Numbered from the stretch's first letter, positions 17,399 to 55,507 are shown. The stretch is 64,000 bases of DNA from Candidatus Woesearchaeota archaeon (GCA_964540065.1 CAZIKY010000004.1:16306-80305); one strand, 5' to 3'. Translations and numbers: made by a program. The notes: generated from the sequence alone by a model not told the origin.

Positions 17399-18028
17399 TC
17401 AAATTTTTCTTATATATCTTGCAGGTATAGGATAAGTTACTCTCCCTTTTGTTGTGACTCTAAGCTCCACATCAATATTAGCATCTTTGTCCTCACCAAT
17501 TTCAGACTTTAGATCCACCCTTAAGAATCCATATTTTCGGTCTGTCCTGAATAAGTCATCAACATAAACCTTCTCCGTGTACATGCCCTTCCTGCCAAAA
17601 TAAACTGTCGGAAGCTTCTTTTCTCTTTCATCATCGTGCATTACTTCCAGATAATCTCCTTGAGGCATTTGAAGAACCATTTCCCTGAGACTTTTTCTTC
17701 TTCCAGGATGGTATCCGTTGTTTCTTGCGGCATTTCTTCTATCTTCAAGAGTCTTTCTCCTGTCTATTATAACTACCTGCTCCCGAGGCACATCCAACTC
17801 TTTCAAACCTCCGACTGTCTGGAGCTGAACTGTTGAGAATCTTCTTCCTTCAACGTGCGCCTTTAGAACTATTGGAACCAATTCTTGATCATTATACGGA
17901 TAAACTTTGGATTTTTCAATAATCTCTGTAAGCCTATTTCCTTTTCCGAAGGATATTGCACTCTCCCTGCGGTTAAAACCTCTCTCTGAGCTTACCTTCA
18001 AGAAAATTCCGTATTGGGGCTTCTCCAT
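17399..18028 (-). CDS. hypothetical protein (basic, possibly RNA-associated)
   Basis: 209 aa. Its stop is 2 nt from the sua5 start. No motif recognised. Confidence 0.45.
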   Translation of the reverse strand: MEKPQYGIFLKVSSERGFNRRESAISFGKGNRLTEIIEKSKVYPYNDQELVPIVLKAHVEGRRFSTVQLQTVGGLKELDVPREQVVIIDRRKTLEDRRNAARNNGYHPGRRKSLREMVLQMPQGDYLEVMHDDEREKKLPTVYFGRKGMYTEKVYVDDLFRTDRKYGFLRVDLKSEIGEDKDANIDVELRVTTKGRVTYPIPARYIRKI

Positions 18029-19087: not shown

Positions 19088-19160
19088 TGCACCTGCCGGG
19101 ATTCGAACCCGGATACCGGCCTTGGCAAGGCCGAGTCATAAACCATTAGACCACAGGTGC
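19088..19160 (-). tRNA. tRNA-Gly (anticodon GCC)
   Basis: Reverse complement is GCACCTGTGGTCTAATGGTTTATGACTCGGCCTTGCCAAGGCCGGTATCCGGGTTCGAATCCCGGCAGGTGCA. It has a 7-bp acceptor stem, a GGTTCGAATCC T-arm and anticodon loop TTGCCAA. No encoded CCA. Confidence 0.85.
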
Positions 19161-19208: not shown

Positions 19209-19865
19209 TTAATCCCTTCTTTGGCCGTATATTCTTCGGCCTGCTGCAGAAGCAGAATTAATCTGATAAAGATTAAAATCCTTTACAAAAGCATTGAATC
19301 TTCCTTCAACAAAATTCAGCAAATCCTTTGGAGCCCTTCTGTATATCCTTGAGCCAACCTTTACATGATCTTGTCTTGAAATATCAGTAGTGCTTGCGTG
19401 GAAAGTAAGTGCTTTCTCCGGTCTTGCTATCTCGCCTTCAGCAAAATAGAATATATCCACTCTGTTTATGGTCCTTCTTTCAGCAAAACCTGGAAGGAAC
19501 TCCCTAAATGCAGCATATTCTCCTCTTCTGACTTCTACATCAAATACTGGAGGAACATTTCTTTCCATACCGAAATATTTGATTGCAGTGCTAAAATCTA
19601 CTGTAGGTGTTGCACCTTCATCAAAGCGTATGGAGCTCTTTTTTCCGCGGGCAGCTCTTTTATATTCAAAGTCAAGCTCTGGGTGGACTGCTCTGAAATA
19701 AGCGCTCATTTCCCTCTGCGGGAGAATATTAGAATCCATTCTTTCTACTGCGCCAATAACAGACAATCCTGGAACAAAAGCAACAAGATCTTCTATCTTG
19801 GCTACACCGTGCTTTTCTTTGTAAGCCCCGGTAGATTCTCTTTCTTCAAATGCTAATGGTAACAT
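19209..19865 (-). CDS. hypothetical protein
   Basis: 218-aa ORF immediately downstream of tRNA-Gly; no recognised motif. Confidence 0.45.
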   Translation of the reverse strand: MLPLAFEERESTGAYKEKHGVAKIEDLVAFVPGLSVIGAVERMDSNILPQREMSAYFRAVHPELDFEYKRAARGKKSSIRFDEGATPTVDFSTAIKYFGMERNVPPVFDVEVRRGEYAAFREFLPGFAERRTINRVDIFYFAEGEIARPEKALTFHASTTDISRQDHVKVGSRIYRRAPKDLLNFVEGRFNAFVKDFNLYQINSASAAGRRIYGQRRD

Positions 19866-32280: not shown

Positions 32281-32413
32281 CCCTGTGTAGCTCAATGGTG
32301 GAGCTCTCGGCTGTAGCTCAAGCGTTAAGTTGACGTTCCTTTCAGGACGAGAATGATACTTAATCAGCCGAATGGAACCCGAGTGGTTGGCGGTTCGAGT
32401 CCGCCCGCAGGGA
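32281..32413 (+). tRNA. intron-containing tRNA, likely tRNA-Tyr (anticodon GTA) with ~61-nt intron at canonical 37/38
   Basis: Acceptor stem CCCTGTG/CGCAGGG with discriminator A. D-arm GCTC-AATGGTG-GAGC. Anticodon stem 5' half CTCGG plus loop CTGTAG are interrupted by about 61 nt (32317-32377) before the 3' half CCGAG. T-arm GGCGG-TTCGAGT-CCGCC. Confidence 0.7.
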
Positions 32414-39857: not shown

Positions 39858-40454
39858 ATGGCTGATAAACCTAGAACATTAAAGATCTTAGTCGGCAAGA
39901 CCGTTTCAGACCTAGAAAGGGCCTATGATAAACTGCATGCCTGGTTTTATGCCTATCCATCAAAAGAGTTTTCCTTGAATGAGCTTATTGATAATTTAGG
40001 GATGTCAAAAACTACTGCCGGAGTAGTTGTTTCCCGGCTCGCCAAAGAAGGCTTTATTTCAATATCCCAGATTGGAAAAACCTGGAGGATCAAAGCAAAT
40101 CTGAATCATCCGCATTTTACTACAAAAAAGATCCCTTTTAATCTGCAGGGAGTCTATGAAAGCGGGATAATTGGATGGGTAAGGGATAACATCCCCAATG
40201 CAAGAGCAATTATTCTCTTTGGAAGCTACAGGAAAGGAGATGATATTGAAGACAGCGACTTAGACATTGCAGTGGAAGTGATAAGCAACGAGCCTATAAA
40301 GATAATATCTGGACTGACCCTTAAGAATTTGGGGTACAGGAAAAATGTTAAGGTAAATCTACATGTATTTTCAAGGAACAATATAGACCTAAATGTTTTT
40401 GCCAATATTGCAAATGGATTTGTTCTTGATGGGTTCTTGGAGGCAAGGCCATGA
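39858..40454 (+). CDS. minimal nucleotidyltransferase (MNT) domain protein with N-terminal wHTH; antitoxin-like partner of HEPN
   Basis: The NTase motif (IILFGSYRKGDDIEDSDLDIAV) matches the GS...DxD signature. The stop overlaps the downstream HEPN ORF by 4 nt (ATGA). Confidence 0.65.
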   Translation: MADKPRTLKILVGKTVSDLERAYDKLHAWFYAYPSKEFSLNELIDNLGMSKTTAGVVVSRLAKEGFISISQIGKTWRIKANLNHPHFTTKKIPFNLQGVYESGIIGWVRDNIPNARAIILFGSYRKGDDIEDSDLDIAVEVISNEPIKIISGLTLKNLGYRKNVKVNLHVFSRNNIDLNVFANIANGFVLDGFLEARP

Positions 40455-40858
40455 TGAGGCAAAGGGTTCCCGATAAAATGAAGGCCAAAAGCATGATTGA
40501 AGCGGCTGCTTTGGAATTAAATTTTATAAAAACGCTAAAAGTCTCAAAGGGATCAGGAGCAACAATAATCAGGGGAGTTTATGAAAACTTCAGGATGCTT
40601 GGAGATGCCCTCCTCCTTATTCGTGGTAAAGAGGCTTTGGGTCTTGACCATCATAGCGAGATGATAAATGAGCTTCTTACTCTATCTGTAAAGACCAAAA
40701 GGCCGATTAATGTCTTAAACAACCTTAAGTCTTTAAGGAATAGCATTAACTATCGAGGCTACATCCCAACTGCCGGAGAGGTGCAAGACTCTTTATCAAT
40801 GGCGGAAGACTGTTTTGAGCCGATATTTAAAGAGATTAAGAAAGAACTCGGAAATTAA
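40451..40858 (+). CDS. HEPN domain protein (toxin-like partner of MNT)
   Basis: 135 aa, all-alpha. It has LRNSINYRGY where the HEPN Rx4-6H motif is expected. The expected His is absent, so the HEPN call rests mainly on its position and size. Confidence 0.5.
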   Translation: MMRQRVPDKMKAKSMIEAAALELNFIKTLKVSKGSGATIIRGVYENFRMLGDALLLIRGKEALGLDHHSEMINELLTLSVKTKRPINVLNNLKSLRNSINYRGYIPTAGEVQDSLSMAEDCFEPIFKEIKKELGN

Positions 40859-41973: not shown

Positions 41974-42065
41974 TGATTAAAGAATATGCCTTTTAATTTA
42001 AACATTCCCTTTTTCCCTACAGCATTAACAAGATTTAAAAATCTACTTTTTCTTTAAAAGTTTGT

Positions 42066-42137
42066 GCCTCAATGGTGTAACGGCTAGCACGCAACCCTGT
42101 CACGGTTGTAGTCCGGGTTCGAAACCCGGTTGGGGCG
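42066..42137 (+). tRNA. tRNA-Asp (anticodon GTC)
   Basis: GCCTCAATGGTGTAACGGCTAGCACGCAACCCTGTCACGGTTGTAGTCCGGGTTCGAAACCCGGTTGGGGCG. Acceptor GCCTCAA/TTGGGGC, anticodon stem CAACC/GGTTG with loop CTGTCAC, T-arm CCGGG-TTCGAAA-CCCGG. Confidence 0.85.
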
Positions 42138-42138
42138 T
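42127..42138 (+). repeat. 12-nt tRNA-Asp 3'-end sequence (CGGTTGGGGCGT), first copy of a direct repeat
   Basis: The identical 12-mer recurs at 42899-42910, about 770 bp downstream. A possible att-site duplication. Confidence 0.4.
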
Positions 42139-42246
42139 AGTACATTTTTGCATTTTTTATGGGCGTCGAAAGTATGTCATAAACAGTCCAAGATGTTTAT
42201 ATTAAACATAGGTTATATTGAGAAATATAAATTTAAAAAAGAATAT

Positions 42247-42657
42247 TTATTCTGCTATGGATATTCCCCTAACCTTACTTTTTAGATGAGGAAATTCTCT
42301 TAATAGTCTTCTTATACTATTATGAGTCTTAGACAATCCCGGATTAATCTTTAAGGCATCAGTGTAAGATTTTAATGCGTCTTCTGGATAACCAAATCCT
42401 CCTAATATCTCCCCCATATTATTATGAGCATAAGACAATCTCGGATTAATCTTTAAGGCATCAGTGTAAGATTTTAATGCACCTTCAAAATCGCCTTCCT
42501 TATGCAAATCATATCCCTGCGAAAAAATATCTATAGCGTAGTTTAGTGATATCTGTTCTAAAGGAGAGAGTTCAATATTTTTTGGATAACCAAATGACTC
42601 AGCTGTTTCTCTGCTAATAGAATTTCTTTTATTCCCCGCATTATATATTAGTTTCAT
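42247..42657 (-). CDS. TPR repeat protein
   Basis: 136 aa with two nearly identical 34-aa TPR units (ALKSYTDALKINPRLS / ALKSYTDALKINPGLS). Confidence 0.6.
   Translation of the reverse strand: MKLIYNAGNKRNSISRETAESFGYPKNIELSPLEQISLNYAIDIFSQGYDLHKEGDFEGALKSYTDALKINPRLSYAHNNMGEILGGFGYPEDALKSYTDALKINPGLSKTHNSIRRLLREFPHLKSKVRGISIAE
42319..42480. repeat. nucleotide-level tandem duplication (two ~60-nt copies, period 102 nt) inside the TPR gene
   Basis: Copy 1 is at 42319-42378 and copy 2 at 42421-42480. They are about 93% identical and correspond to one duplicated 34-aa TPR unit. Confidence 0.6.
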
Positions 42658-42898
42658 ATAGTATAGATAATCTCCACCTATTTAAATCTTTCTATTTGTT
42701 ACTACTCTCAAGAGATTATAAAACTAGCATGAAAGACTAATTAATTTTATTATCGACAAAAATAAAAAACAATTCTATTTCACCAGAAAATTTTATCTTC
42801 TCATTCTCGACAATTCTTAAAAACTCTGAGAGTATGTAATAATTATGACGTAATAAGAGCGTTTGACGCCCTTTGATTATGCAAAAAGCTCTTCCCTT

Positions 42899-42910
42899 CG
42901 GTTGGGGCGT
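42899..42910 (+). repeat. second copy of 12-nt tRNA-Asp 3'-end direct repeat, within a hairpin-capable element
   Basis: CGGTTGGGGCGT is embedded in GACGCCC...GGGGCGT. That element can form a 6-bp stem, ACGCCC pairing with GGGCGT. Confidence 0.4.
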
Positions 42911-43101
42911 TTCTGGAACTCGAAATTAAATCCGATGCCCATTTATTAAAATGAATCTTTCGGATTTACAAAAAATAAATTTTGATGATTTCCATAAATT
43001 TACTCTTTCTTCTTCCAAAGCAATTTTTATTACTTCTTCATTCTTGGGAAGTTATAGTTTGGTGACCTTCAAAGAACCAGCTATAAAAACTTTTTTAAGT
43101 T

Positions 43102-45117
43102 ATGAATTCTTATAAACGCATGTTAAAAAAGAGGTTTATAGGTCTGATATCTGCTTTTGTTTTTCTGCTTGCAATTTCGGGATTTGCAAATGCTGCAACA
43201 TTAAACGTTAAGCATGATATTACAGTAAATATTCATGAAGATTCATCTTATGATTATGATCATGCATTTACATACAATCCCCGTGAGTATTACAAAAGCT
43301 TTTACTATTTCTTTATACCTGGTAGTTTCAATGATGTTTCTATTACTGCTGACGGAAAGCCTGTGACTATATCTGAAATTACTCCTCCACGATTTAAGGG
43401 AGGATTATTTAGCTACAAAATAATTTCTCCAAACCCCGAAAAGAGCAGTATTTCGGTAAGATTAAAAGCTACTGGAAAATTGATAGAGCTTAACGAAGAA
43501 GGCATTTACAAATTGGAAAATGTTGCTTACCCTGCAACATTTAATCCCTCAACAACAGAAGTTATAGAAATTTTTAATTATCCGAGATCCTGGGATGCGG
43601 TTGCGTACAATAGAGACATACCTTCAATAAATGCAGATAAAGGCCACAATTCGTTGGTACTTAGGTCTAGCGGCTTAAACTCTTTTGTAGGAGTCACTTT
43701 AGTTAATGAGAATGTTTCTGCTGGAATTGAAACTATTCGGAAAGGAGGAGTCACTTTAAAAGTTCAGAACCATTCAAAGCTTAAAGAAGCGGTAAGAATC
43801 GCTTCAGAGAATCTTAATTATGTAAGAAAATTAACTAACGGTGAAATCTTTATCTATGTAGATACTAGGACAGAAGAAGAGTATGGGGGGGCACTGCCTT
43901 CAGCATTTTATTCTTTAGATTCAGCAAGTGGATATATTGAAAACTCATTAAATTATGTCTCTCCGGAAGAAGCTTCTGCAACAATAATCCACGAACTAAA
44001 CCATTTCTCAAATGATGTTAATGATGCCGGGCCATTCCCCGTGTGGCTGGAAGAAGGATTGGCAGAAAATCAAGAATTAAAATATAGTTCAGACAAGTAT
44101 CCCTCTTATGCCTTCAAATCGATACCCCAGAAATGGCAATTGGAAGCATGGTATGGTGATGGAAGTTATTTTGGAGAAAGCAGACTTATAGAACTCCAAC
44201 CTATAGAAGATTACTTCCTATATGCTTTTGTTATAAGGCATTTTGAAGAGAAATATGGAAATGCCGCTTTAGAATCTGCATTATTAGAAATAAATCGTAG
44301 AATGAAAACTGAGAAGCCCGACTTTGAAGGTTTCGTTACTGAAGACTATCAAGAATTTTATGATAGGATAGCAACCGAAGTCTTTGCATCGAGAGTTGGG
44401 GGCAATAAAGAAGATTTCTTCTTCCCAGAAAAAGACCTATTCATTTCAGACCCCCATGCTTTTGAAGAGAAATTATCAAAATTTTACCGGAAGGATTGGA
44501 CTGCCAGAGAGGTTATGTTTGAATGTTTGAGTAATGGACAAGATCCCTTCGAATGTGAAGACCGAGTTTATGGGTCAAAAGCATTGATCGAATCACTCAG
44601 GCCACAGGCGTATATCGCATTCATTGAAGATTATGGCTCTACAAGCGAGGCCATAGAAGCAGGGTTTTTAGAATGGGAAAATAGCCCTGAAAAAGCAGAA
44701 TTAGATGCCGCATTAGAAGCAGAATTGGAAGAGTTTTATCAAAGCGAAATAGAGTCTACTTTCGGAATCGGGATCTTGACAGCAATACTTGCAATATTAA
44801 CATTATTTTTCCCGCATAAAGGCTATCGTAAAGAAATCAAAGAGCTAAAACAAAAAGGCATAAAACTTAAAATAAGGGCTATGATGGGAATTTTATCTTC
44901 ATTCATAGCGTGGATAATACCCTTTATGATATTATTGATGGGAACTACGGCAACATTCAGAGATGGAAGAATATTCTCTGGGATACTGATCATGCTTATA
45001 GCAGTATTTTTGACCCCAACCTTTCAAAAATATTTGAAGAAACAAGATCTTCCTGTCTCCGGTTGGGTTAGGGTAGGATTAGTTGTTCTATCCTTTGTTA
45101 TATTTATATACCTCTAA
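43102..45117 (+). CDS. secreted zinc-metallopeptidase-like protein (HExxH...E, gluzincin-type) with C-terminal TM helices
   Basis: 671 aa with a signal peptide and an HExxH...E pattern (IIHELNHFSNDVNDAGPFPVWLEEGLAE). The last ~100 aa contain 3-4 hydrophobic helices. Confidence 0.5.
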   Translation: MNSYKRMLKKRFIGLISAFVFLLAISGFANAATLNVKHDITVNIHEDSSYDYDHAFTYNPREYYKSFYYFFIPGSFNDVSITADGKPVTISEITPPRFKGGLFSYKIISPNPEKSSISVRLKATGKLIELNEEGIYKLENVAYPATFNPSTTEVIEIFNYPRSWDAVAYNRDIPSINADKGHNSLVLRSSGLNSFVGVTLVNENVSAGIETIRKGGVTLKVQNHSKLKEAVRIASENLNYVRKLTNGEIFIYVDTRTEEEYGGALPSAFYSLDSASGYIENSLNYVSPEEASATIIHELNHFSNDVNDAGPFPVWLEEGLAENQELKYSSDKYPSYAFKSIPQKWQLEAWYGDGSYFGESRLIELQPIEDYFLYAFVIRHFEEKYGNAALESALLEINRRMKTEKPDFEGFVTEDYQEFYDRIATEVFASRVGGNKEDFFFPEKDLFISDPHAFEEKLSKFYRKDWTAREVMFECLSNGQDPFECEDRVYGSKALIESLRPQAYIAFIEDYGSTSEAIEAGFLEWENSPEKAELDAALEAELEEFYQSEIESTFGIGILTAILAILTLFFPHKGYRKEIKELKQKGIKLKIRAMMGILSSFIAWIIPFMILLMGTTATFRDGRIFSGILIMLIAVFLTPTFQKYLKKQDLPVSGWVRVGLVVLSFVIFIYL

Positions 45118-45796
45118 GAAAATTCAATAAGTTATTATAATCATCAACGAGGCGATTATAGTCTTTTCTCAAGTCATTATAATCCATGACTAAATTATTA
45201 TGCTTTGTACGCAATGATTCATATTGTGATAGGAGGAGAGTATACTCTTTTTCTGCAGCTTCAAGATCCGTCTTGGCTTCGGCTTCAGTTTCTTTGACTG
45301 CTTGGAATCCTTTCTTTTCTAGTTCTAAATACTTTTCATTAAGTGAAGTATAACTCGCTTCGGCGCTTCTTAGATCTTCATTCAAGTCAGAGATAATAAA
45401 CTCTAGATCTGAAATCTCTGTTAAAAGTTCGTTTTCTGCTTGATTTGCTAATACTGCGTTTGTAATTAATGCTATGGTGAGGAGGATTATTGTAAAAGTT
45501 GGCAGAACTCTTTTCCATTTTGACCATAAAGCTTTTGATTTTGACACCAATTTAGAATTTTTTTTGAATAAAGCTCTTCTAACAAGTCTTGATCTGCATT
45601 TGGGACATTTTTTTGCAAATAAAAGTTCTTTCCAAGATTTGGCTTTAAAATCCCACTGGTGACTGCACTTCATGCATTTTAGGTGCATTCCCTTTCTCTT
45701 ATCTCTCCACCTTAATAAAAGCGCGGCGATAAATAAGTAAATTATTATCCATCCGACTGTACTTATCTCAAAAATAAATCTAGGACTTTTTTTCAT
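45104..45796 (-). CDS. membrane protein with zinc ribbon (CxxC...CxxC) and C-terminal coiled coil
   Basis: 230 aa with TM - CMKCSHQ...CPKCRS - TM, then a heptad-rich acidic region. Confidence 0.4.
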   Translation of the reverse strand: MKKSPRFIFEISTVGWIIIYLFIAALLLRWRDKRKGMHLKCMKCSHQWDFKAKSWKELLFAKKCPKCRSRLVRRALFKKNSKLVSKSKALWSKWKRVLPTFTIILLTIALITNAVLANQAENELLTEISDLEFIISDLNEDLRSAEASYTSLNEKYLELEKKGFQAVKETEAEAKTDLEAAEKEYTLLLSQYESLRTKHNNLVMDYNDLRKDYNRLVDDYNNLLNFLRGI

Positions 45797-45901
45797 TAAA
45801 ATACCCCCAAGTTTTATGCTCTTTGGAAATTAGTGAAGTATATAATATTTTCGTAAAATGAATAAGAAAAATTTAAATAAATACTCTCCCTTAAAAATTT
45901 C

Positions 45902-46345
45902 ATGAAAAAGAGGAAGAGAAATAAAAAGGTCTTGATATTGTCATCAGCGATTGTTCTAATATTAATTATTTTAGGGATCTTCCTTGCGTTAAATAGCTTC
46001 CAAGAAAAATCTTGGCAAGACTTGATTTCATTCAAGGGAACTGGAAGCATTCAAACAGATCCCTTCAAGATTGAAGGAGATAGGATAAATATGACCTTCA
46101 CAATATATTGCGGGATAGAAAAGTGCCAGAATATCGGTTTTTCGTCATCCGAATTGTGGCAGTATGAAAAAAATCTAAGTATCGCCCCTTCAGACATCGA
46201 TATCAACTATTTCCAAGACCAAGGAGAAATTTCTAAGTCAAGAATTGTAGAATTCCTTGGAGACAGAGAAGCTTGGGGGGAAAATTTTTACTTGAAAATT
46301 AGGTCCGACGTTCCTTGGGAAGTTAAAATTTCTGAGTATGCCTAG
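45902..46345 (+). CDS. small secreted protein (signal peptide), unknown
   Basis: 147 aa with an N-terminal basic plus hydrophobic signal anchor. Confidence 0.4.
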   Translation: MKKRKRNKKVLILSSAIVLILIILGIFLALNSFQEKSWQDLISFKGTGSIQTDPFKIEGDRINMTFTIYCGIEKCQNIGFSSSELWQYEKNLSIAPSDIDINYFQDQGEISKSRIVEFLGDREAWGENFYLKIRSDVPWEVKISEYA

Positions 46346-46386
46346 AATAAATCAATAACTCGATTAATATTGGCCCCAGCATAAGC

Positions 46387-47808
46387 TTATGCGGGATCCA
46401 AATCCTCATATTTTGGGATTCCCATTGCCTTGTGAATACTATCGAGCTGTTTCTGCGTGATCTTTATTTGGGGGGAAGGTTTAGACTTCATCGCTCCGAC
46501 ATAAACTGAAGATCCTGTTTTCTTATCATGGTAGACCTGGGTTCTTCCGGTTTCCAAATGCCTTTCAAATATTGCATCTAAGTCTATACCCTCCGATTCT
46601 TTCTTCTTAACCCTGTAAGGCTCAAGTAATTGCTTGAGAGTCGGCTGTGAAAAGTCTCCTTCAGCCCTAAAAGTATCGAAAAGTACATTCAAAACGCTCA
46701 AGTCTATTTCATTGCTGTAAGGGCCTTTTGGCTCGGCAGAATATCCATTTTTGAATCCTTCAACAAATAATTGGGTCATCCAAGGAGACCTTATATGATC
46801 CTCCAAGAAAGGCTTCCCAGTCATCTCTCTTGGGCTGATTATTCTTGTGCTGCTTGAGATAAGGTCTTTGTACTCTCTCTTTTGCAAAGCTTCTATTTGA
46901 GATTTGGAAAGCTTGTCCACGCTTTCAGAAGAATCAAAGTCTACAAGACCTACTTTTAATTTGTCAGTTCCATTATACAAAACAATGTTTCCTATATGGG
47001 CATTTGTCTGCTCATCTTCTGAACTCCAAGTCTGGCCGCTTTTATCCATTAATCTCTTTAATCTTCCGGTAGTATATCCTACATTCTTCATCAAATCCTT
47101 CACTGCATGATAGAATACCTCGCCCAAATGAGTCCATTGCCCGATATGGACTAAATTCTTCTTCTTTGGATCCCTTATCTTGTGAACTCTTGAAATATAT
47201 AATCCGTCTATGACTCTTACCAACTCATCAAGCCTTGTATCCCCTTTAACTTCAAATAGAGTGGTTACCGGCCTTAAACCTTTGATGGTTAAAGGATATT
47301 TCCATATTCCTACAGTCTTCATTAAAGGCTCTATACCTACACTCTCCAAAACTTTGTTGAATCTATGAGTCATTTCCGCTTCATAGACTGCATTTGTAAA
47401 TTTCTGCCCGCCCCTTATCTCTTTGTAGCCCTCTCCGCTGAAGAGCTGCGGCTCTTTCAGGTCTAAAGAAACCCCTTTAAGCCTGTATAATCCGCGTCCA
47501 GAAAAAATTCTTCTCGGATCATTTACCAAAACAGACCTATGGCCGCTCCATAAGGCAGGAATTACGTCCAGCTTTTTCATATATCTGTATACTTTGAATT
47601 CGGGGTAGAAAAGGTTTCTAATCTCATCCCCATCCAAATAATGCCTAAGAAGCAAATCATCATTTTTGTCCCTTTCGTGTATCTTTGTAACCAAATAGCT
47701 CGGGACAACCCTTGGAGTCTTAAGAAATTCCGGAAGATCACTGTTTACAAAAGATTCCCCTTCAACCCTTTTCAAGAAGGTTTTGTCCCTCTTTATCAAA
47801 AGCTCCAT
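46387..47808 (-). CDS. uncharacterized protein with weak protein-kinase-like catalytic motifs
   Basis: 473 aa with NAHIGNIVLYNGTDKLKVGLVDFDSSE, resembling an Hx(D)xxxxN...DF(D/G) core. The assignment is tentative. Confidence 0.4.
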   Translation of the reverse strand: MELLIKRDKTFLKRVEGESFVNSDLPEFLKTPRVVPSYLVTKIHERDKNDDLLLRHYLDGDEIRNLFYPEFKVYRYMKKLDVIPALWSGHRSVLVNDPRRIFSGRGLYRLKGVSLDLKEPQLFSGEGYKEIRGGQKFTNAVYEAEMTHRFNKVLESVGIEPLMKTVGIWKYPLTIKGLRPVTTLFEVKGDTRLDELVRVIDGLYISRVHKIRDPKKKNLVHIGQWTHLGEVFYHAVKDLMKNVGYTTGRLKRLMDKSGQTWSSEDEQTNAHIGNIVLYNGTDKLKVGLVDFDSSESVDKLSKSQIEALQKREYKDLISSSTRIISPREMTGKPFLEDHIRSPWMTQLFVEGFKNGYSAEPKGPYSNEIDLSVLNVLFDTFRAEGDFSQPTLKQLLEPYRVKKKESEGIDLDAIFERHLETGRTQVYHDKKTGSSVYVGAMKSKPSPQIKITQKQLDSIHKAMGIPKYEDLDPA

Positions 47809-47887
47809 CGAAAGTTTTAGAATGAACCGCTTTTAAAGATTTATATTGTGGGTTTGCAATTTCAGCAATATACTTTAAATACTCTTT

Positions 47888-48838
47888 TTGCTTGCCTTTA
47901 AAATGAGGGATTTCAAAAGAGGGATCGTAGGGGTTTTGCTTTTCGCCGCAGGAATCCTGCTTATTAGCCTTTATCATACCGGAAGCATAAGCGGCTTTGC
48001 AGTTTTGGACAATGAATCTGCCGCTGAAATTCTGAAAAGCCCGATTGCCGCCTTCATTGTTTATGTTTCTGGGATCATTCTTATGCTTGCGGGCTCGGGA
48101 GTTGTAAGCGGCAAGCTAAAAGTTGCTGGCCTTGAATCAAAGCTTTTCTACAAAGATAATGAGGGAAATGTTCTGATAAATGATTTCAAGAATGAGCTCC
48201 AACAGGAAGGAATTCCAAGCGGAACTCCAGCAGAAGACGCCTTGAGAAGGATGCATAAATATGTAGAAAATGACCCGAAGCTTAAGGAAATGTTCCGGGA
48301 GATAATATTAAAGCCGTATATAGATGCGGCGAGAAGGCAGAGATATTCTCTTGCCGGAGACCATATTAAAGGCCATCCTGAGGAAGCCTTTGCGGACAGA
48401 TTCCTTAAAGAATGGGATCCAAGCTATAAGCCTCTTGTACATAAGGACGTTGTCCCGATAGAGCTAGACAAAGTAGATTCAGACCATATGATAGTCAGGC
48501 ACTACACAAACCCATCAAGGGCTCAAAAAATACTGCATACTTCCAAGTTCGGGGGAGCAACTGCCCCAAGAGATATGGATCAAGGGAAGGTTTTCATAGA
48601 ATTGGGGAGCAGCAGAATACTCTCTCCCCAAGAGTTTCTTAAAAGATATGCTATACCTCCGACCAAGAAGGATCTGGGCAAAGCATATATTGAATTTGCT
48701 GTTCCGAAAAAAGATGTGGGCTCTCAGATTAATCCGAGAAATGGGGAGAAAGAATATTTCTTAAATGCCACACATACTGAACATGGGAAGAAAGTTTATG
48801 AGATAAACAGTGAGATAAAGGTTGTTAAGAGAAAATAA
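47888..48838 (+). CDS. membrane-anchored hypothetical protein
   Basis: 316 aa with two N-terminal TM helices and a soluble C-terminal domain. Confidence 0.4.
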   Translation: MLAFKMRDFKRGIVGVLLFAAGILLISLYHTGSISGFAVLDNESAAEILKSPIAAFIVYVSGIILMLAGSGVVSGKLKVAGLESKLFYKDNEGNVLINDFKNELQQEGIPSGTPAEDALRRMHKYVENDPKLKEMFREIILKPYIDAARRQRYSLAGDHIKGHPEEAFADRFLKEWDPSYKPLVHKDVVPIELDKVDSDHMIVRHYTNPSRAQKILHTSKFGGATAPRDMDQGKVFIELGSSRILSPQEFLKRYAIPPTKKDLGKAYIEFAVPKKDVGSQINPRNGEKEYFLNATHTEHGKKVYEINSEIKVVKRK

Positions 48839-48839
48839 A

Positions 48840-49289
48840 TTACTTGGCTTCGTATTCCTCATAAACTTTGAACATTACAGGGGATTCTGAAAGCCTGTCT
48901 TTCATTATCTTTTTGACTTCATCCCACTGAAGTTTGCCATAACCGCATCCTATCTTCGGGATGGCGCATGTTTTAACGCCTTTCTTCTCTAAAAGGTTCC
49001 TGAGCTTTCTTAATGAACCGTTAACATAGCTAAGCTCGGCGTTGTATAGGTTTTCCTGAGTTCCCAAGTAAGCGATTTTTGGGGTATTTTCGGCATCTAG
49101 GATAACTCCTCCCAAATCAAAGCCGTTTCTCCTTAGCTTCTTGAATCTTGAGAATGTTTCGGGCCATTTTATTTTGATCTGTTTGGCTATACCTGTCCCC
49201 ATGTCTTCTACGTTTCCTGCGGCAACCCCATGGGCCAGGACTTCCGCATCGCTTTCAAGTGCGTCCCCCAAACAATATTCTATTGCCAT
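48840..49289 (-). CDS. macro domain protein (ADP-ribose / O-acetyl-ADP-ribose binding or hydrolysing)
   Basis: 149 aa with a Gly-rich phosphate-binding region (LAHGVAAGNVEDMGTGIAKQI) and CAIPKIGCGYGKL, typical of MacroD-like domains. Confidence 0.7.
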   Translation of the reverse strand: MAIEYCLGDALESDAEVLAHGVAAGNVEDMGTGIAKQIKIKWPETFSRFKKLRRNGFDLGGVILDAENTPKIAYLGTQENLYNAELSYVNGSLRKLRNLLEKKGVKTCAIPKIGCGYGKLQWDEVKKIMKDRLSESPVMFKVYEEYEAK

Positions 49290-49293
49290 AAAA

Positions 49294-49692
49294 TTAATCC
49301 TCCATTGCGATGTAAGGAGCGTAGAATTCTTTGTTGCTTCTCTTTATTACAAAGGCCGGATAAGAGGCCCTTGCGCATTTCATCTTTTCCCTTGCTTCAG
49401 AAAGATCCCTGGAAACACTTTCTTTTTCAAGGAAAGAAATCGGAAGCGGCTTGGCGAGAGAGTATCTTAAGACTATAATTCCATGGCCTGCATGTTCAGG
49501 AGACATGGAAGCAAATTCCCCCGCATGAGTTCTTATGTAATCTGAAAAATTAGACTCTAAATCGAAGATTACCATGTCTAATCTGTCTCTTGACCTAAGA
49601 TCTTCAAGGCTTTTTACTGCCCCAAGCATGTTGGGCATACTATAGCTTTCAAAGAAAACGCTTTTCGCTTTGGATAATTTAGCACTTTTCAT
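49294..49692 (-). CDS. hypothetical protein, co-operonic with macro domain gene
   Basis: 132-aa ORF ending 4 nt upstream of the macro gene start; no recognised motif. Confidence 0.4.
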   Translation of the reverse strand: MKSAKLSKAKSVFFESYSMPNMLGAVKSLEDLRSRDRLDMVIFDLESNFSDYIRTHAGEFASMSPEHAGHGIIVLRYSLAKPLPISFLEKESVSRDLSEAREKMKCARASYPAFVIKRSNKEFYAPYIAMED

Positions 49693-49998
49693 AAACTGTT
49701 AGCCATCCAGGATATTAGTATGTCTTAAGCTCGCTTGTTTATAAACTTTATTATTTTATCACTTTGAAATGACACTTTAAATTGGGAAAAAACTTTTACC
49801 AAAATCCATTTCAACAATCCTTTTATAGCCCCTTTATTCATTTGAATCATGATAATTAGGATTGTTTCCTACAATGTGCTTCTGATCATTTCCCGGTTTG
49901 GGCAGACCTCGAGATACCCAAAAGATGCTAATATTGGTCTAATTTTTCTTACCAAAACATTTAAATAATTGTTGTCACCTAAAAATGAATACGGCACG

Positions 49999-52095
49999 AT
50001 GGGAAAGAGCCTTTTATCTTTAATTTTGGGAGCAGCTATTCCTTTGGGATTTGCTGCAAATATCAGTGCTTCTGATAGTTCCGCTAGTAATTCTAAAGAA
50101 GACAGCTGCAAAACTGCAAGCTATCAAGAGTTTGAAGGGGAAAATGACAGAGTTTCCAAGTTTTTCCAGACTTTCTCTGAAAAACCCGATGAAAAAGTTG
50201 ACAAACTCCTTGAAAAAGGAGAGTATGCTCATGCTTTGAGCTACATTGATAAAGTCGAAGGTGAATTAAACGGCCTTTCTTCACAGCTCAGGCTTCTGAA
50301 AGAAAAATATCCGGCTTTAGAATCGCTTTTTAAGAAGACCCTTCCGAATAATTTTGCGTTCCAGAGATGCAAAATAAAGACAGACAATGAGACTTTTAAT
50401 AAAGGGCAGCTGCTTTTGGACAAATCTGCCCACATTCTTACAACTTCCGACTGGAGTTTATCCGGAGATTTGACTGCTTATGAAAATGCATTAAGCACTG
50501 TTTCTGAAGTTGCGAGCCAATATGCCGGAATTTCCAGCTTAACTTTGAACCAGCTTGATGACGGCGAATTCAAATCCTTGGAAAAAAGGATTTCTGAAAA
50601 AGAGTTAAGTTTGGCTTCTGAGAAAGACGGAAGGCTGAAGTTTATTGAATTCTTAGCAGACAGCGGAGATGCTGTCGTTGAGATGTACAGCGTAGATTTC
50701 TCAGATTTGGATAAAGCAAGAGAAGCTGTTGAAATTTCCTCGGGGGTAATCAATCGTGCTAAAGGCATAATCTCTGAGTATAACCTTCAGCATAAGGAGA
50801 CAATGACTTCTGTCTCTCTATGGGAAAGCCAAAGGGAGAATCTTGTTAAAGGAATAGCCCTGAAAGAAGAAGAACTTCGATTAGAAAGGGAAGCAGTCAA
50901 GAAAGCTGAAGAGGCCGTCTTTGGAAAGGATGAAGTAGAAAATGGCTTGAAGGAAGAGCCAAAGGAAATTCTTGGCGTAGAAGAAAGAATCAAGAGAAAA
51001 GAAGAAAACATGCCAAGCTATAATCAGGCTCTAGGGTATGTTAAAACAGCAGATATGCTCAATAAAGAAGGAAATTATATCGGGGCAAGAGTATTCTATT
51101 CTAAGGCAAGGGAATTGCTTAAGAATTCGCAATCTAGGGAAGATTGGGAAAATACCTTGAACGATCTTGAAGGCAAGATTCATTCTAATGAAACTCAAAA
51201 AAGATTAAGCGATAAGCTTGAAATTGCAAGAAGGCAGAAGTTAGGCAAAAACGGATGGTATAACTTCGAATCAGCATATCATTTTGAAAGCTCCAAAGGA
51301 GATACTCGAGCTGAATTGTCCGGATTTACCAATGTTTTGGATCTTAGGCCAGTTTTCGCCTTGCCCAAATCAAAAAGATTCAACTTGGCTCCGATATTCC
51401 GCGCTGAGCAGGAAGTATTGAGCGGCGAAGCAGAGAATACTGCAAAGATTAATGAACGTTCTGAAAGATCTCTTGAATTAGGTTTAGGGCTTGGATTTAA
51501 AGGGACATATCTTTCTGCAGGAGCAGTTTGGCAAAACGCAAGCAGAGAAGTTGCTCCATATAATATCCCATTCAATATAACTTCAAACGCCTCTGAAAGC
51601 TCATTGGGATTGGGATTAAGGGCATGGACAAATTTCCTGCTCAATTCAAGGCTTGAAGTAGCCTACAGGCAGGCATCTGGAAATCTTGATGAAGAGACAT
51701 ACAGAAATGGTACTTTAACTAAACAAACTTCATCCCCATTAGAGACCCAAAGATTCTCATTAAGCGGGCAGGTCAGCCCGGTTGAGAGCCTTACCTTGGG
51801 ATTAAATTATGATCATCTCTCCAAGGAAGTGAGAAGGGCAACTTCAAAATCAGATAGTAAGAGCGATATATTGAAATTTTCTGTTTACGCCACCCCATTC
51901 AACCTTATTCCTAAAGGTTATATCCCAAAATCAAGAGCAGGGAGAGGCTTCTTAAACGAGCTTAGGCAATTAGGCTTTGGAGGATCATATTCCAAGAACA
52001 GATTTACCGGGGGAGATTCTGAAAGATACTCTTTGGAGTTCAGATATCCTCTTAAGCAGCCGTTAAGAAGAGATAGTTCAAAAAATGAAAATTAA
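49999..52095 (+). CDS. secreted coiled-coil protein with beta-strand-rich C-terminal domain
   Basis: Signal peptide (MGKSLLSLILGAAIPLGFAANISA), a long Lys/Glu coiled-coil middle and a C-terminal ~300 aa with alternating hydrophobic and Gly patterns (LELGLGLGF, SLGLGLRAW, LTLGLNY). Overlaps the next gene by 11 nt. The ORF track begins at 49969; the ATG at 49999 is preferred because the signal peptide starts there. Confidence 0.5.
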   Translation: MGKSLLSLILGAAIPLGFAANISASDSSASNSKEDSCKTASYQEFEGENDRVSKFFQTFSEKPDEKVDKLLEKGEYAHALSYIDKVEGELNGLSSQLRLLKEKYPALESLFKKTLPNNFAFQRCKIKTDNETFNKGQLLLDKSAHILTTSDWSLSGDLTAYENALSTVSEVASQYAGISSLTLNQLDDGEFKSLEKRISEKELSLASEKDGRLKFIEFLADSGDAVVEMYSVDFSDLDKAREAVEISSGVINRAKGIISEYNLQHKETMTSVSLWESQRENLVKGIALKEEELRLEREAVKKAEEAVFGKDEVENGLKEEPKEILGVEERIKRKEENMPSYNQALGYVKTADMLNKEGNYIGARVFYSKARELLKNSQSREDWENTLNDLEGKIHSNETQKRLSDKLEIARRQKLGKNGWYNFESAYHFESSKGDTRAELSGFTNVLDLRPVFALPKSKRFNLAPIFRAEQEVLSGEAENTAKINERSERSLELGLGLGFKGTYLSAGAVWQNASREVAPYNIPFNITSNASESSLGLGLRAWTNFLLNSRLEVAYRQASGNLDEETYRNGTLTKQTSSPLETQRFSLSGQVSPVESLTLGLNYDHLSKEVRRATSKSDSKSDILKFSVYATPFNLIPKGYIPKSRAGRGFLNELRQLGFGGSYSKNRFTGGDSERYSLEFRYPLKQPLRRDSSKNEN

Positions 52096-55000
52096 GACCA
52101 ATAAAGGCGAATGGAAAACCTTGAAGGCTTTCGCATCAGTGTTAATCCTTTTAGCTGTAGTTCCTGGAGTTCTTGCAGCTTTGATAACTCCTTCAAATCC
52201 AGACACTACCGCCAATCTTGCATTTGATATTTCAAACCCTTCGCAATATGTCTATAAATGGTTTAGAGATGGGGTGGAACTTTCGGGAGAAACTGGCTCA
52301 ACTTTGAGCTCTTCATACACTTCTAGGGGGAATACCATCCTTGCAGAAGCTTACTTGAATATTTTAGGAGATTTGGTCTTCATCGATAATGCCCAAACAA
52401 CCATAGTCAATGCTGTTCCTTCAACCCCTACAGTTTATTTCTCTCAAAACAGTTATTTTGCGGATTCAAACATTACTGTTACTGCATCAAGCACCGATGC
52501 AGATAATGATGCCTTGACTTACACTTACACTTTCTATGTTAATGGGTCTTCTACTCCTTCCCAGAACTCCACTTCCAATGTCTTTAACTGTCTAGGGAGC
52601 TGCAATAAAGGCGGAACTGTAAGCGTTACAGTAGTTGCTAATGATGGTTTTACTAATTCCAATTCAGCAAGCAATCAGACTTCAATAGTTAATTCTCCCC
52701 CGGTTATTGGTTTAATTACGGTTTTGCCAAGCACGGTTTTGATCAATAGCACACTTAATGTTACGGCAAGCGTGCTTGATGTTGATGGAGATAACCTCAC
52801 AACAACTTTCCAGTTTTACAACTTGAATGATTCTTCAGTTTTGCAGAACTTCTCTAGCAATAATCTGCTTAATCTTTCGATAAATGATGCCCATAATACC
52901 ATAAGGGTTACAGTTAACTCCACTGATGGAGCCAATGTTACTTCAAGCTTCACAGATGTTGTAGTCTCTAACTCTTTGCCTCTTTGGAGCTTGGGAAATT
53001 TGAGCTTTAACCAAGATACAAATCTTTCAGTTAACTTTTCCGGAAATGTTTCTGATCTTGAGAATGATAGCCTTAATTTCAGCGCGGTTGGTTCCCAGAA
53101 TATTACTGCAAGTCTTAATGGAACTACTTTGACACTTGTTCCAGACAGCGGGTTTATCGGAACTCAGACAGTAAACTTGACTGCTGATGATGGGTTCGGG
53201 AACAGCACACAAGTTTTATCTATAACAGTTTTTGATACAACCCCTCCGGTGCTAAACATTACTGCCCCAACTAATGGACAGCTTTTCAACACTACAAATA
53301 ACGTGACTTTAACATTTACTGTTTCAGACAATGGGGTTCTAGATACTTGCAGATACACCTCTTCATTTGATTCCGGAGGTAATTTGAACTGCACCCTTGG
53401 AAGTTACAACTTTACGAATATGGTTAATGGGAATCATTCTGTGACTGTTTTTGCAAATGATTCAAGGGGAAACTCAGCCAATCAAACAGTTAACTTTACA
53501 GTTAACTTCAACTCCGCCCCTTCAATTGCTTCCTTGAATTTAACTCCAAGCTCTCCAACCACTGCCAACAACTTAAATGCCACATTCAACTTAACAGATG
53601 TTCAGCAGACTTCGCTTACTGCTTTCTATAATTGGTATAATAATGGAGTATTGAACCAAAGCGGAAGCACAAGTGCAACAAGCGGAGCCTTGGCTTCAGT
53701 AATTCTAAGCTCTGGAAATACATCTAAAGGCCAAAATTGGACCTTTGAACTGATCCCTTCAGATGGATTGCTAAATGGAACTGCTCAGAATGTTAGCCTT
53801 GTTGTTGTAAATACTGCCCCTACTTCTTCAAACATTTCCGCACAGACTTGGCAGGAAAATCAGAATTTGACTTTGAACTTGAGCTTATATTTCAGCGATG
53901 CTGATTCAGATGACCTAAGTTTCACAAGCACAAGCCCTGCAAACATCACTGTTTTGATAAACAACTCGACTAATACTTTAACTTTAGTCCCTGATGCTAA
54001 TTTTGTCGGAAAGAGAAACTTAACTATTACGGGATTTGACACTGAAAATGCAAATGTTACTAGCAATACATTCGATCTTTATGTCGGTTTCAGCGTGGTT
54101 ATCAATTCTTATGTAAATGGAACTTTTTATCCTACGGGAAACTATACAAATATCGCGGGATTGGAAACTTCCACTTTGAATGTTTCCAATATAACTGGCC
54201 CTACAATCAGTGTTTTGGATTCTACAATAACCAACTCCACAATAGTTGACTCATCTATGAATAACTGCACCGTTACAGACAGCACAGTTATTGGATCTCC
54301 TTGCTTGAATGCAGTTATTGATCCTTCTGATGTAAGATACAGCAATGCCACAGGAAGCACAGTTTTGGATTCCACAATACATTACAGCAATGCAACAAAT
54401 TCGTTTGTCAATCAGACTTCGATCTACAATTCAAGCATTGATGGCTCAAACATGACTCTTGCAACTTTGACAAATGTTACTATGACTGGATCAACCGTGT
54501 TGAACAGCACATTGAGCAATACAGTTATTGGAAGCGCAAACATAACAAATGGAGTGGTTTACAGCGGAACAATCTTGATGGCTAATGGTTCTACTTACAA
54601 TGCAACTTCTCAGGGCGCCTTGAATTTGACCTCTGCAGTCAATTATGCTCCGAATGCTGTGATAAGCTCCCCGATCTCCGGAAGCTTTAACACTGGAAGC
54701 GCGATTTCATTTGTTTCCGGAAGCACAGATTCAAATGTCGGAGGGTCATTGAATGATACATTGACTTTCTTCTGGAATTTCGGGGACGGAACAAATGCAA
54801 CCACTGAAAATGCCACACATACTTACTCGAGCGATGGAGTTTACACTGTCGTCTTGACAGTTACAGACAGATTTAATTCCACAGATAATGCTACGGTCAC
54901 CTTAACCTTATCCACGCCTTCTTCCGGAAGCGGAGGCAGCGGAGGCGGAGGCGGTGGAGGAGGCGGAAGCAGCACTCCCGCAGTATTTACAGTAACCCTT

Positions 55001-55507
55001 ACAGAACCGGTTTCAAAAGATCTGTCTGTTGGACAATCAATATCCTTCGACTTCTTGGGAGAGAAGCATTCAGTTACCTTAGAACAAGTAACTCAGACTA
55101 ATGTAAGAATTAAGGTACAATCTACTCCAGTATTTGCCACTTTGGCTGTGGGGGAGACGGGCAAGTTTGACCTGAATGGGGATGGAATTTATGATCTTGC
55201 AGTTACCTTAGAACAGAGGCTTTCCAGCCTTAAGGCTAAGCTTAAGTTTGCATTGATCTCTGAACCGATAGAAAAAGCCGAAGTAAAGGAAGAGCCTAAG
55301 GAAGAAGAGAAAGTGGAAGAGACTGAAGAAACAGAAGCCGAGGAAACCCAAACTGAAGAAGAAACTAAGTTCGATTTCAAGTCTTTGACTGGAAAGGTTA
55401 CAGAAACTTTATCAAAGGTCTCTAAGAATACTTGGATTTCAGTCGGGGCAGTTGTAGCCTTGTTAATACTTACATTTTTACTTTATAGAGTACTTTACTC
55501 TAATTAG
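52085..55507 (+). CDS. giant cell-surface protein (1140 aa): Asn/Ser/Thr-rich, Ig-like/beta-helix-like repeats, PKD domain, Gly linker, acidic stalk, C-terminal TM anchor
   Basis: Features, in order: a signal peptide; dense N-x-S/T sequons; a repeated LTLVPD(S/A)xF(I/V)G module (two copies); parallel beta-helix-like NxT/NxS repeats; a PKD signature (FWNFGDGTNATTENATHTYSSDGVYTVVLTVTD); a GSGGSGGGGGGGGG linker; an EEKVEETEETEAEE acidic stretch; and a C-terminal TM (ISVGAVVALLILTFLLY). Confidence 0.6.
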   Translation: MKIKTNKGEWKTLKAFASVLILLAVVPGVLAALITPSNPDTTANLAFDISNPSQYVYKWFRDGVELSGETGSTLSSSYTSRGNTILAEAYLNILGDLVFIDNAQTTIVNAVPSTPTVYFSQNSYFADSNITVTASSTDADNDALTYTYTFYVNGSSTPSQNSTSNVFNCLGSCNKGGTVSVTVVANDGFTNSNSASNQTSIVNSPPVIGLITVLPSTVLINSTLNVTASVLDVDGDNLTTTFQFYNLNDSSVLQNFSSNNLLNLSINDAHNTIRVTVNSTDGANVTSSFTDVVVSNSLPLWSLGNLSFNQDTNLSVNFSGNVSDLENDSLNFSAVGSQNITASLNGTTLTLVPDSGFIGTQTVNLTADDGFGNSTQVLSITVFDTTPPVLNITAPTNGQLFNTTNNVTLTFTVSDNGVLDTCRYTSSFDSGGNLNCTLGSYNFTNMVNGNHSVTVFANDSRGNSANQTVNFTVNFNSAPSIASLNLTPSSPTTANNLNATFNLTDVQQTSLTAFYNWYNNGVLNQSGSTSATSGALASVILSSGNTSKGQNWTFELIPSDGLLNGTAQNVSLVVVNTAPTSSNISAQTWQENQNLTLNLSLYFSDADSDDLSFTSTSPANITVLINNSTNTLTLVPDANFVGKRNLTITGFDTENANVTSNTFDLYVGFSVVINSYVNGTFYPTGNYTNIAGLETSTLNVSNITGPTISVLDSTITNSTIVDSSMNNCTVTDSTVIGSPCLNAVIDPSDVRYSNATGSTVLDSTIHYSNATNSFVNQTSIYNSSIDGSNMTLATLTNVTMTGSTVLNSTLSNTVIGSANITNGVVYSGTILMANGSTYNATSQGALNLTSAVNYAPNAVISSPISGSFNTGSAISFVSGSTDSNVGGSLNDTLTFFWNFGDGTNATTENATHTYSSDGVYTVVLTVTDRFNSTDNATVTLTLSTPSSGSGGSGGGGGGGGGSSTPAVFTVTLTEPVSKDLSVGQSISFDFLGEKHSVTLEQVTQTNVRIKVQSTPVFATLAVGETGKFDLNGDGIYDLAVTLEQRLSSLKAKLKFALISEPIEKAEVKEEPKEEEKVEETEETEAEETQTEEETKFDFKSLTGKVTETLSKVSKNTWISVGAVVALLILTFLLYRVLYSN

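Follow-up and report, generated by a model that had tools for sequence, protein, structure and literature searches.

In a 64,000-nucleotide stretch of DNA from an uncultured DPANN archaeon (Candidatus Woesearchaeota archaeon; GCA_964540065.1 CAZIKY010000004.1:16306-80305), here called the window, the 3' end of a tRNA-Asp gene opens a compact unit of 784 bp at 42127-42910. In this unit two copies of a 12-nt sequence, CGGTTGGGGCGT, enclose a pair of inverted-repeat arms and one gene, TPR136, and we tentatively favour the view that the unit is the footprint of a small non-autonomous mobile-DNA insertion at the tRNA-Asp 3' end. The direct repeats and the inverted repeats are improbable in combination, the segment that they bracket is the compositional extreme of the window, and a recombinase gene is absent. 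A first-pass annotation of the same DNA had noticed the repeated tRNA end and proposed an integrated-element remnant or islet that reaches to 49.7 kb. Its idea of an insertion at the tRNA-Asp 3' end is partly supported: the att-like duplication that it described gains weight from deviant composition and from an inverted repeat just inside each 12-mer copy, which it had overlooked, but the repeats bracket 760 bp and one TPR gene. The actual feature is thus the unit of 784 bp and not a 7.5-kb islet; if it is indeed the scar of a mobile element, it adds one more minor case to a type that is already known.

The tRNA-Asp gene and its repeated 3' end

The tRNA-Asp gene (GTC) lies intact at 42066-42137 on the plus strand (Rfam 59.1 bits; ARAGORN 42065-42138), does not encode the CCA end and is preceded by a promoter-like ATTTAAA box within 42029-42060. 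Its last 11 nt plus one trailing T form the left copy of the direct repeat (DR-L, 42127-42138, plus strand), which takes in the final 3 nt of the T-stem, all 7 nt of the acceptor strand, the discriminator G and the trailing T, and which is a candidate att core or target duplication. The right copy (DR-R, 42899-42910, plus strand) lies in an intergenic spacer, with the start of the next gene, p671, about 190 nt further downstream. The two are identical over exactly 12 nt on the same strand and are 772 bp apart from start to start. Both copies are thus where the first-pass annotation had placed them, and a search of both strands of the window with up to 1 mismatch finds no third one (shuffle mean 0.03).

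For CGGTTGGGGCGT itself a first-order Markov model predicts 3e-4 occurrences per strand. When all 12-mers within the 3'-terminal 25 nt of the three tRNAs in the window, together with the next 5 nt, are considered, the expected recurrence under the Markov model is 0.07 in the window and 0.001 within 1 kb downstream. Of random anchors, which are mostly AT-rich, 0.6% have a match of 12 nt or longer that recurs within 1 kb, and 17% have one at any distance along the strand. The window contains 56 direct-repeat pairs of at least 12 nt that lie at most 5 kb apart, and the CGGTTGGGGCGT pair is the sole one with a GC content of at least 0.6. Since exact 12-mers as a class are common in this AT-rich window, the repeat taken by itself is suggestive and not conclusive.

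DR-R is not embedded in a tRNA-like fragment or pseudogene, since the similarity ends at 12 nt and an Rfam search of the site at relaxed threshold is empty; structured RNA around it was not found either (fold z-score +0.2). A degenerate third repeat that could close a larger island was not detected, and matches with at most 3 mismatches, including one at 49894, occur at chance level.

An 82-kb NCBI contig contains the same DNA, as do Logan contigs from run SRR5011273. One of the latter, L002, an independent assembly from the same sample, reproduces the right arm and DR-R. The left junction lies outside the retrieved Logan contigs, and contig L001 ends at 42104, inside tRNA-Asp after tRNA position 39. 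A possible cause of this break is a second sequence in the sample that is identical to the tRNA beyond position 10 or so, and that may be the tRNA-Asp of a sister organism or an att site borne by an element. The hypothetical empty site would read ...CCCGGTTGGGGCGT+TTCTGGAACTCG and the hypothetical circle junction ...ATGCAAAAAGCTCTTCCCTT+CGGTTGGGGCGT+AGTACATTTTTGCAT...

Two arms in opposite orientation

Repeat search and local alignment both identify a left arm at 42145-42182 (plus strand, ungapped core 42145-42170) and a right arm at 42843-42887 (minus strand, ungapped core 42862-42887). The order within 42127-42910 is accordingly direct repeat, 6 nt, arm, cargo, arm, 11 nt and direct repeat, and the two spacers (AGTACA on the left, GCTCTTCCCTT on the right) are mutually unrelated. 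Both arms read TTTTTGCAT-N7-GGGCGTC...GTCATAA and together form an imperfect inverted repeat of about 40 bp. The composite motif TTTTTGCAT-N7-GGGCGTC is found in exact form at just two sites of the window, and these are the arms, in opposite orientation.

The local alignment of the arms scores 15, as compared with a null mean of 7.3-7.7 (standard deviation 1.6), a score that 0.075% of 60,000 similarly spaced real sequence pairs, and 0.25% of AT-rich ones, attain. In the window 201 direct-repeat pairs are at least 11 nt long and 200-5000 bp apart, and of these the CGGTTGGGGCGT pair has the highest inner inverted-repeat score (mean 7.2, standard deviation 1.7). The combined probability of the repeat (0.001-0.07) and of the arms (0.00075-0.0025) comes to about 1e-6 to 2e-4, and for this reason 42127-42910 is treated as real architecture. 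The runner-up in the window, a plus-strand pair of 12-nt repeats at 17843-17854 and 19299-19310 with an inverted-repeat score of 13, encloses a tRNA-Gly gene (19088-19160); as both copies lie within open reading frames (ORFs), this pair is probably due to chance.

Inside the left arm there are T5/T6 runs that are suited to terminating the tRNA transcript. No Rfam family and no significant RNA fold was found at the arms. The reconstructed excision junction forms an extended, imperfect hairpin whose loop contains the 12-nt core (DNA fold z=-3.4), but this follows from the arms being inverted repeats, so that it restates their pairing and adds no independent point.

The enclosed gene and its composition

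The sole cargo is TPR136 (42247-42657, minus strand), which encodes a protein of 136 aa with matches to Pfam TPR_2, TPR_1 and TPR_11 (E about 1e-10). It contains three TPR units, two of which derive from a 102-nt tandem duplication (79% identity). A TATA-like box, ATTTAAAT, can be read at 42680-42687, which is 23-30 nt ahead of the start codon (ATG), and the stop codon is followed by a T-run; judged by these signals, the segment appears to be a complete promoter-gene-terminator unit. The matches of TPR136 in metagenomes are generic TPR proteins of 35-42% identity, one of them beside a bacterial tRNA-Glu that is without repeats.

With a GC content of 0.301, the enclosed 760 bp lie below all other windows of 760 bp (minimum 0.337, mean 0.400). 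TPR136 itself has a GC content of 0.331, and at 0.234 (z=-3.0) it has a lower GC content at third codon positions (GC3) than any other of the 75 genes.

Searches for mobility genes and related sequences

An integrase, transposase, Cas1, other mobility gene or viral or plasmid hallmark was not found in the bracketed unit, in the 42-50 kb region, among the window ORFs of at least about 240 aa or in 7.6 kb beyond the right end of the window, in agreement with the first-pass remark that no integrase is visible. The proposed comparison of the region with viruses and plasmids yielded no match to either. A PHROGs search of the region returned generic TPR, coiled-coil and macro matches alone, and IMG/VR holds no relatives of TPR136 or of the neighbouring p473 and p671. 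In blastn searches with 42-50 kb, the tRNA was all that matched in the phage database, and nothing matched in the plasmid database. The 3' 25-mer of tRNA-Asp is absent from IMG/VR and from the JGI metagenomes, and the reconstructed attP-like circle-junction pattern is absent from IMG/VR. A second copy of the arms or of the cassette was detected neither in the window nor in the fetched loci, IMG/VR or the JGI metagenomes, and the 64 kb plus 7.6 kb likewise hold neither a second cassette copy nor a transposase. A cognate integrase-bearing element with the same att site was not found in the window or the fetched loci.

A possible mechanism and the alternatives

Duplication of the 3' part of a tRNA gene is the standard scar of archaeal integrative elements (PMC9897764). 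As a direct repeat of a tRNA end, inner arms and atypical cargo correspond to an attL/attR layout, we favour an att-flanked cassette that resembles the cis-mobilizable elements (CIMEs). The unit would then be a non-autonomous cassette of miniature size, or else what is left of a larger element after its collapse, which entered by site-specific recombination of the tyrosine-recombinase type, with the 12-bp identity CGGTTGGGGCGT as the crossover core. The left core copy would now complete tRNA-Asp, and the right copy would be the displaced original tRNA end. The subterminal inverted repeats of about 40 bp could act as the arms of attL and attR to which a recombinase or an accessory protein binds, and the cargo would be one self-contained transcription unit with TATA box, TPR136 gene and T-run. 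As no recombinase is encoded, movement would need an enzyme supplied in trans.

Several points weigh against this reading. The 12-bp repeat is far shorter than the repeats of about 44 bp in archaeal tRNA-integrating elements (PMC9897764), the chance statistics for repeats and arms are post hoc, and neither a recombinase gene nor a second copy turned up in the searches described above. The dinucleotide signature of the bracketed segment is not deviant. The DNA outside the repeats at 42.9-46.4 kb is low in GC as well, so that composition singles out the bracketed segment uncleanly. In addition, the hypothetical empty site would leave tRNA-Asp without a nearby T4-5 run, while the other two tRNAs in the window have a T-run within 3-26 nt downstream; as the empty site would lose this run, the present left junction could be native.

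Among the alternatives, coincidence would mean that the 12-mer and the inverted repeat are chance products of AT-rich intergenic DNA, and that TPR136 and its neighbours are native, fast-evolving and lineage-specific genes whose low GC content stems from weak selection. In its favour, a blastn search of the tRNA and its flanks against the window gives the 12-nt match an E value of 0.41, five other 12-mers of the flanks recur, and direct-repeat pairs are frequent, as the 56 pairs within 5 kb show. Similarly, 94 inverted pairs occur in 9.5 kb, among which the arm pair is no outlier by length and identity alone, a mobility gene and a further copy are both missing from the search results, and the GATase gene to the left of tRNA-Asp is likewise low in GC (0.349). 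However, coincidence has to accommodate the small joint probability of repeat and arms, as well as a bracketed segment that is independently the compositional extreme of the window, and we consider it rather unlikely. The closest rival to an att-flanked cassette is a transposition product, that is a non-autonomous transposon derivative of the type of a mobile insertion cassette, a miniature inverted-repeat transposable element (MITE) or a mini-casposon, with terminal inverted repeats (TIRs) and with the 12-bp repeat as a target-site duplication from staggered cuts at the tRNA 3' end. The layout of direct and inverted repeats is present. Duplications of 9-12 bp are made by elements of the IS4 family of insertion sequences (IS) and by their passenger-carrying derivatives. 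This rival is so close because a casposon of Aciduliprofundum boonei inserts at the tRNA-Pro 3' end, where its 15-bp duplication reaches into the tRNA, and TIR-flanked mini-casposons have been integrated in trans (PMC5137440). It is weakened because the arms here do not abut the repeats but lie 6 nt (left) and 11 nt (right) away, and Cas1, PolB and transposase genes were not found in the window, where the unit is present in a single copy. We judge transposition to be improbable.

Less probable again is an origin of the arms, and perhaps of the 12-mer too, as host signals, namely paired terminators or operators that flank TPR136, with the left arm doubling as the oligo-T terminator of tRNA-Asp. 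Each arm does open with a T5 run on its own strand, the left arm starts 7 nt beyond the tRNA, at a place where one would look for a terminator, and the other tRNAs of the window have T-runs at comparable places. Against this stand the lack of a minus-strand gene upstream of the right arm that would need termination, the GGGCGTC and GTCATAA portions of the arms, for which termination does not account, the absence of the arm motif from all other intergenic regions of the window and the lack of an Rfam family or significant RNA fold; the direct repeat is also left unexplained. Coincidence and host signals both stay live because no second copy or partner was found, because of the oligo-T in the left arm and because the empty site would be without a T-run. 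Least likely of all these rivals is the original proposal that a single integrated element or islet, by now degraded and with tRNA-Asp as its anchor, takes up the whole of 42.1-49.7 kb. It can draw on the GC content of 0.340 at 42139-46360, which is below that of all windows of the same size elsewhere (mean 0.400), on the rarity of the p671 family, on a DarG-like macrodomain and a nearby MNT/HEPN pair as gene types that are common in variable regions, and on a weak 11/14 match to the tRNA end at 49892-49905. Yet the exact repeats bracket just 760 bp, 46361-49700 is normal in GC content and signature and holds p473, which is conserved across DPANN phyla, the match at 49.9 kb is at chance level (10 found, 13.3 expected), and virus, plasmid and integrase matches are nil.

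The favoured att-flanked insertion also has a bolder form, in which the unit would represent an undescribed class of DPANN cassettes that are integrase-less, carry a single gene, insert at tRNA 3' ends and have arms that pair when excised. The excised arms of about 40 nt would fold into a hairpin that exposes the 12-nt tRNA-derived core in its loop, and this folded, possibly single-stranded substrate would be comparable to integron attC or CTX-type sites, with a host or helper recombinase acting in trans. We regard such a class as a long shot.

Relation to known mobile elements

As in archaeal elements that target tRNA genes, such as PYG1 of Pyrococcus yayanosii and the SSV-type and pTN3-type elements, the proposed insertion lies directly 3' of an intact tRNA, a direct repeat of the tRNA 3' part is found at both ends, and the enclosed composition is atypical. 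Those elements, however, have a repeat of about 44 bp (PMC9897764) and a size of 5-40 kb, as compared with 12 bp, 0.76 kb and one gene here. Unlike them, the unit is without integrase, replication or virion genes, and it has long subterminal inverted repeats.

The CIMEs are att-flanked remnants of integrative elements that lack a recombination module of their own and are mobile only with an integrase in trans; they are defined by the att sites that they share with a cognate element which carries an integrase and occurs in the same species. The unit resembles them in that att-like repeats bound it, that recombination and transfer genes are absent and that the cargo is small. It differs in its archaeal host, in a size far below that of described CIMEs and in having no known partner element. 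CIMEs, which are bacterial, are listed in ICEberg 2.0 (PMC6323972).

Casposons and mini-casposons, as in Aciduliprofundum boonei, share with the unit a direct repeat of similar length over the tRNA 3' end and inverted repeats at the ends (PMC5137440). Their TIR-flanked cargo can be integrated by a separately supplied enzyme, which is a further likeness to a unit without recombinase, but their TIRs abut the 15-bp duplication (PMC5137440), whereas the arms here are 6 and 11 nt away from the repeats. The duplication overlaps the tRNA by 5 bp in the A. boonei casposon and by 11 bp here.

Mobile insertion cassettes and MITEs are small, IS-derived, non-autonomous elements with terminal inverted repeats that usually occur in multiple copies. 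Small size, inverted repeats, a flanking direct repeat and a passenger gene instead of a transposase recall them, whereas the unit is single-copy as far as seen and its subterminal arms are offset from the duplication. Integron cassettes are single-gene units bounded by short direct core repeats, with attC sites of the form RYYYAAC...GTTRRRY and with IntI and attI as partners. Here, too, a single gene lies between core-like repeats, and a hairpin (ACGCCC/GGGCGT) is possible at the right end. The GTTRRRY core has a near match in GTTGGGG, which fails at the last position, there is no RYYYAAC inverse core upstream of DR-R, and neither IntI nor attI was found. Moreover, the inverted repeat spans the whole cassette and is not contained within one attC.

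The neighbouring DNA up to 49.7 kb

The 6.5-kb patch that the first-pass annotation had included in its element lies wholly outside the repeats, and most of it is without mobile-element signal. The composition of 42.1-49.7 kb, which was to be compared with the rest, is divided: 42.1-46.4 kb is low in GC, whereas 46.4-49.7 kb is normal in GC content and signature. The products had been called exclusively poorly characterised, and by annotation they are, but a fold or family can be assigned to p671, p473 and the macrodomain protein.

Outside the repeats, the low-GC tract at 42911-46360 has a GC content of 0.348, lower than that of any window of the same size elsewhere, and a normal dinucleotide signature. 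Its first gene, p671 (43102-45117, plus strand; the database call starts at 43120 and has 665 aa; GC3 0.292), is predicted to encode a protein with a signal peptide, a zinc peptidase domain of the MA clan (gluzincin) and C-terminal transmembrane helices. A word-indexed search gave no homologues, and among 1.84e9 representatives there are just 17 remote ones of at most 28% identity, so that the family counts 18 proteins; the named homologues all come from metagenome-assembled genomes of Nanoarchaeota/Nanoarchaeia. H297, E298 and H301 (HExxH) and the downstream E318 do not vary among the members, a profile built from the family matches the catalytic domain of M1 aminopeptidases (E=1.7e-5), and 12 of the 17 members have a Pfam Peptidase_M1 or MA_2 match, on which grounds p671 is assigned to the MA-clan zinc peptidases. 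As predicted from these features, the family comprises rare, secreted, membrane-anchored zinc peptidases that are so far confined to DPANN. The following p230 (45104-45796, minus strand; GC 0.332, GC3 0.290) encodes a CxxC...CxxC zinc ribbon, a transmembrane segment and a coiled coil, and p147 (45902-46345, plus strand), the last gene of the low-GC tract, a small protein with an N-terminal membrane anchor. Informative family matches were found for neither, p230 giving weak matches of the coiled-coil type alone. The convergent ends of p147 and p473 have an 18-nt palindrome between them (46370-46401), which coincides exactly with the change from low to normal GC and may be a bidirectional terminator. 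Neither a boundary repeat nor a mobility gene was found at 42.9-46.4 kb. These left 3.5 kb form a tract of low GC with fast-evolving surface genes that are specific to DPANN, and may be an older accretion at tRNA-Asp.

The block at 46361-49700 has a GC content of 0.409 and is unremarkable in composition and signature. It starts with p473 (46387-47808, minus strand; GC 0.402), which is outside the insertion and has 62 homologues from Pace-, Woese-, Aenigm- and Nanoarchaeota (best 49% identity). Residues K111, E143, H271, N274 and D290 are invariant. An AlphaFold2 model (predicted local distance difference test, pLDDT, 85.6) matches SelO/YdiU, Bud32, maltokinase and WaaP in Foldseek, and by this model p473 has a protein-kinase-like fold. 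The family is DPANN-wide and without a Pfam model. At the position of the catalytic loop p473 has H-I-G-N (271-274) in place of the usual H-x-D, and of these residues the H, G and N are the same in all family members.

The remaining genes form a block at 47888-49692 with a GC content of 0.40-0.44. It includes the membrane protein p316 (plus strand), to which no family was assigned. A stand-alone DarG-like macrodomain protein of 149 aa (48840-49289, minus strand) matches Pfam Macro (9e-7), PADLOC DarG (1e-22) and NCBIfam antitoxin_DarG (3e-20, below the cutoff and in the macrodomain part only). The gene of p132 (132 aa, 49294-49692, minus strand) precedes the macrodomain gene in the same operon, and by this arrangement the two could be a toxin/antitoxin-like pair. 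As a DarT-like partner p132 was rejected, as it has no family match and its single-sequence AlphaFold model is unusable (pLDDT 35). The right 3.3 kb hold nothing foreign in composition or in their one traceable gene.

The host and further features of the window

The homologues of the window proteins are named Pacearchaeota, Woesearchaeota, Aenigmarchaeota or Nanoarchaeota, and a thermosome subunit gene and an intron-containing tRNA are both present in the window. The latter is a 133-nt tRNA at 32281-32413 (plus strand; Rfam 50.8 bits), which ARAGORN missed. At 90% identity, each of the proteins tested from 41-50 kb stands alone in a set of about 15 billion, and therefore no close relative of the host has been sequenced. 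Look-ups of the exact proteins gave nothing beyond the Logan contigs of the same sample, SRR5011273.

The GATase gene that adjoins tRNA-Asp on the left has a low GC content but a normal GC3, and it has Woesearchaeota orthologues at 66-68% identity. A scan of genome contigs with GATase returned bacterial homologues alone, at about 35% identity. The nearest relatives (40-68% identity) do not have their gene order in common with the window, and even the flanking housekeeping genes are rearranged. In the loci of the closest GATase relatives (54-68%) and of the p473 relatives (41-49%), zero neighbours are in common with the window. On one Pacearchaeota contig, L009, a tRNA-Asp lies 7 kb from a p473 homologue, which looked like conserved linkage; as no other gene is in common and the tRNA sequence is different, this is treated as coincidence.

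About 1.2 kb upstream of tRNA-Asp, two overlapping plus-strand genes at 39858-40454 and 40451-40858 encode a nucleotidyltransferase/HEPN-like (MNT/HEPN) pair (PADLOC PDC-M05A, E=4e-9; Pfam NTP_transf_2 weak), which by these matches is a predicted toxin-antitoxin or defence-type module. A promoter-like motif of about 32 nt (AAA-ATTTAAATA-...) occurs on the plus strand at 42029-42060, 45867-45898 and 49955-49986, in each case upstream of one gene, namely tRNA-Asp, p147 and p708; it is probably the consensus of the transcription factor B recognition element (BRE) and TATA box of the host. At 52085-55507 (plus strand) a surface protein of 1140 aa is encoded, which has PKD and Big_9 domains, a poly-Gly/Ser linker and a C-terminal anchor and is extremely rich in N-x-S/T sequons; the GC content of its gene is normal and the codon usage atypical (chi-square per codon 0.69).

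Significance

In place of the proposed 7.5-kb islet there is now a 0.8-kb unit with a real architecture of repeats, beside 3.5 kb of low GC whose origin is uncertain and an unremarkable 3.3 kb. Two hitherto uncharacterised DPANN families gain a fold-level assignment, with p473 predicted to be kinase-like and p671 to be a zinc peptidase of the MA clan. The mobile elements of DPANN are only beginning to be catalogued, and how their tiny genomes gain genes is largely obscure. If the insertion at tRNA-Asp is real, a recombinase that acts in trans would be implied, encoded at another place in the genome or by a helper element, and a recombinase-less cassette with one gene would be a concrete and testable case of gene gain on a small scale.

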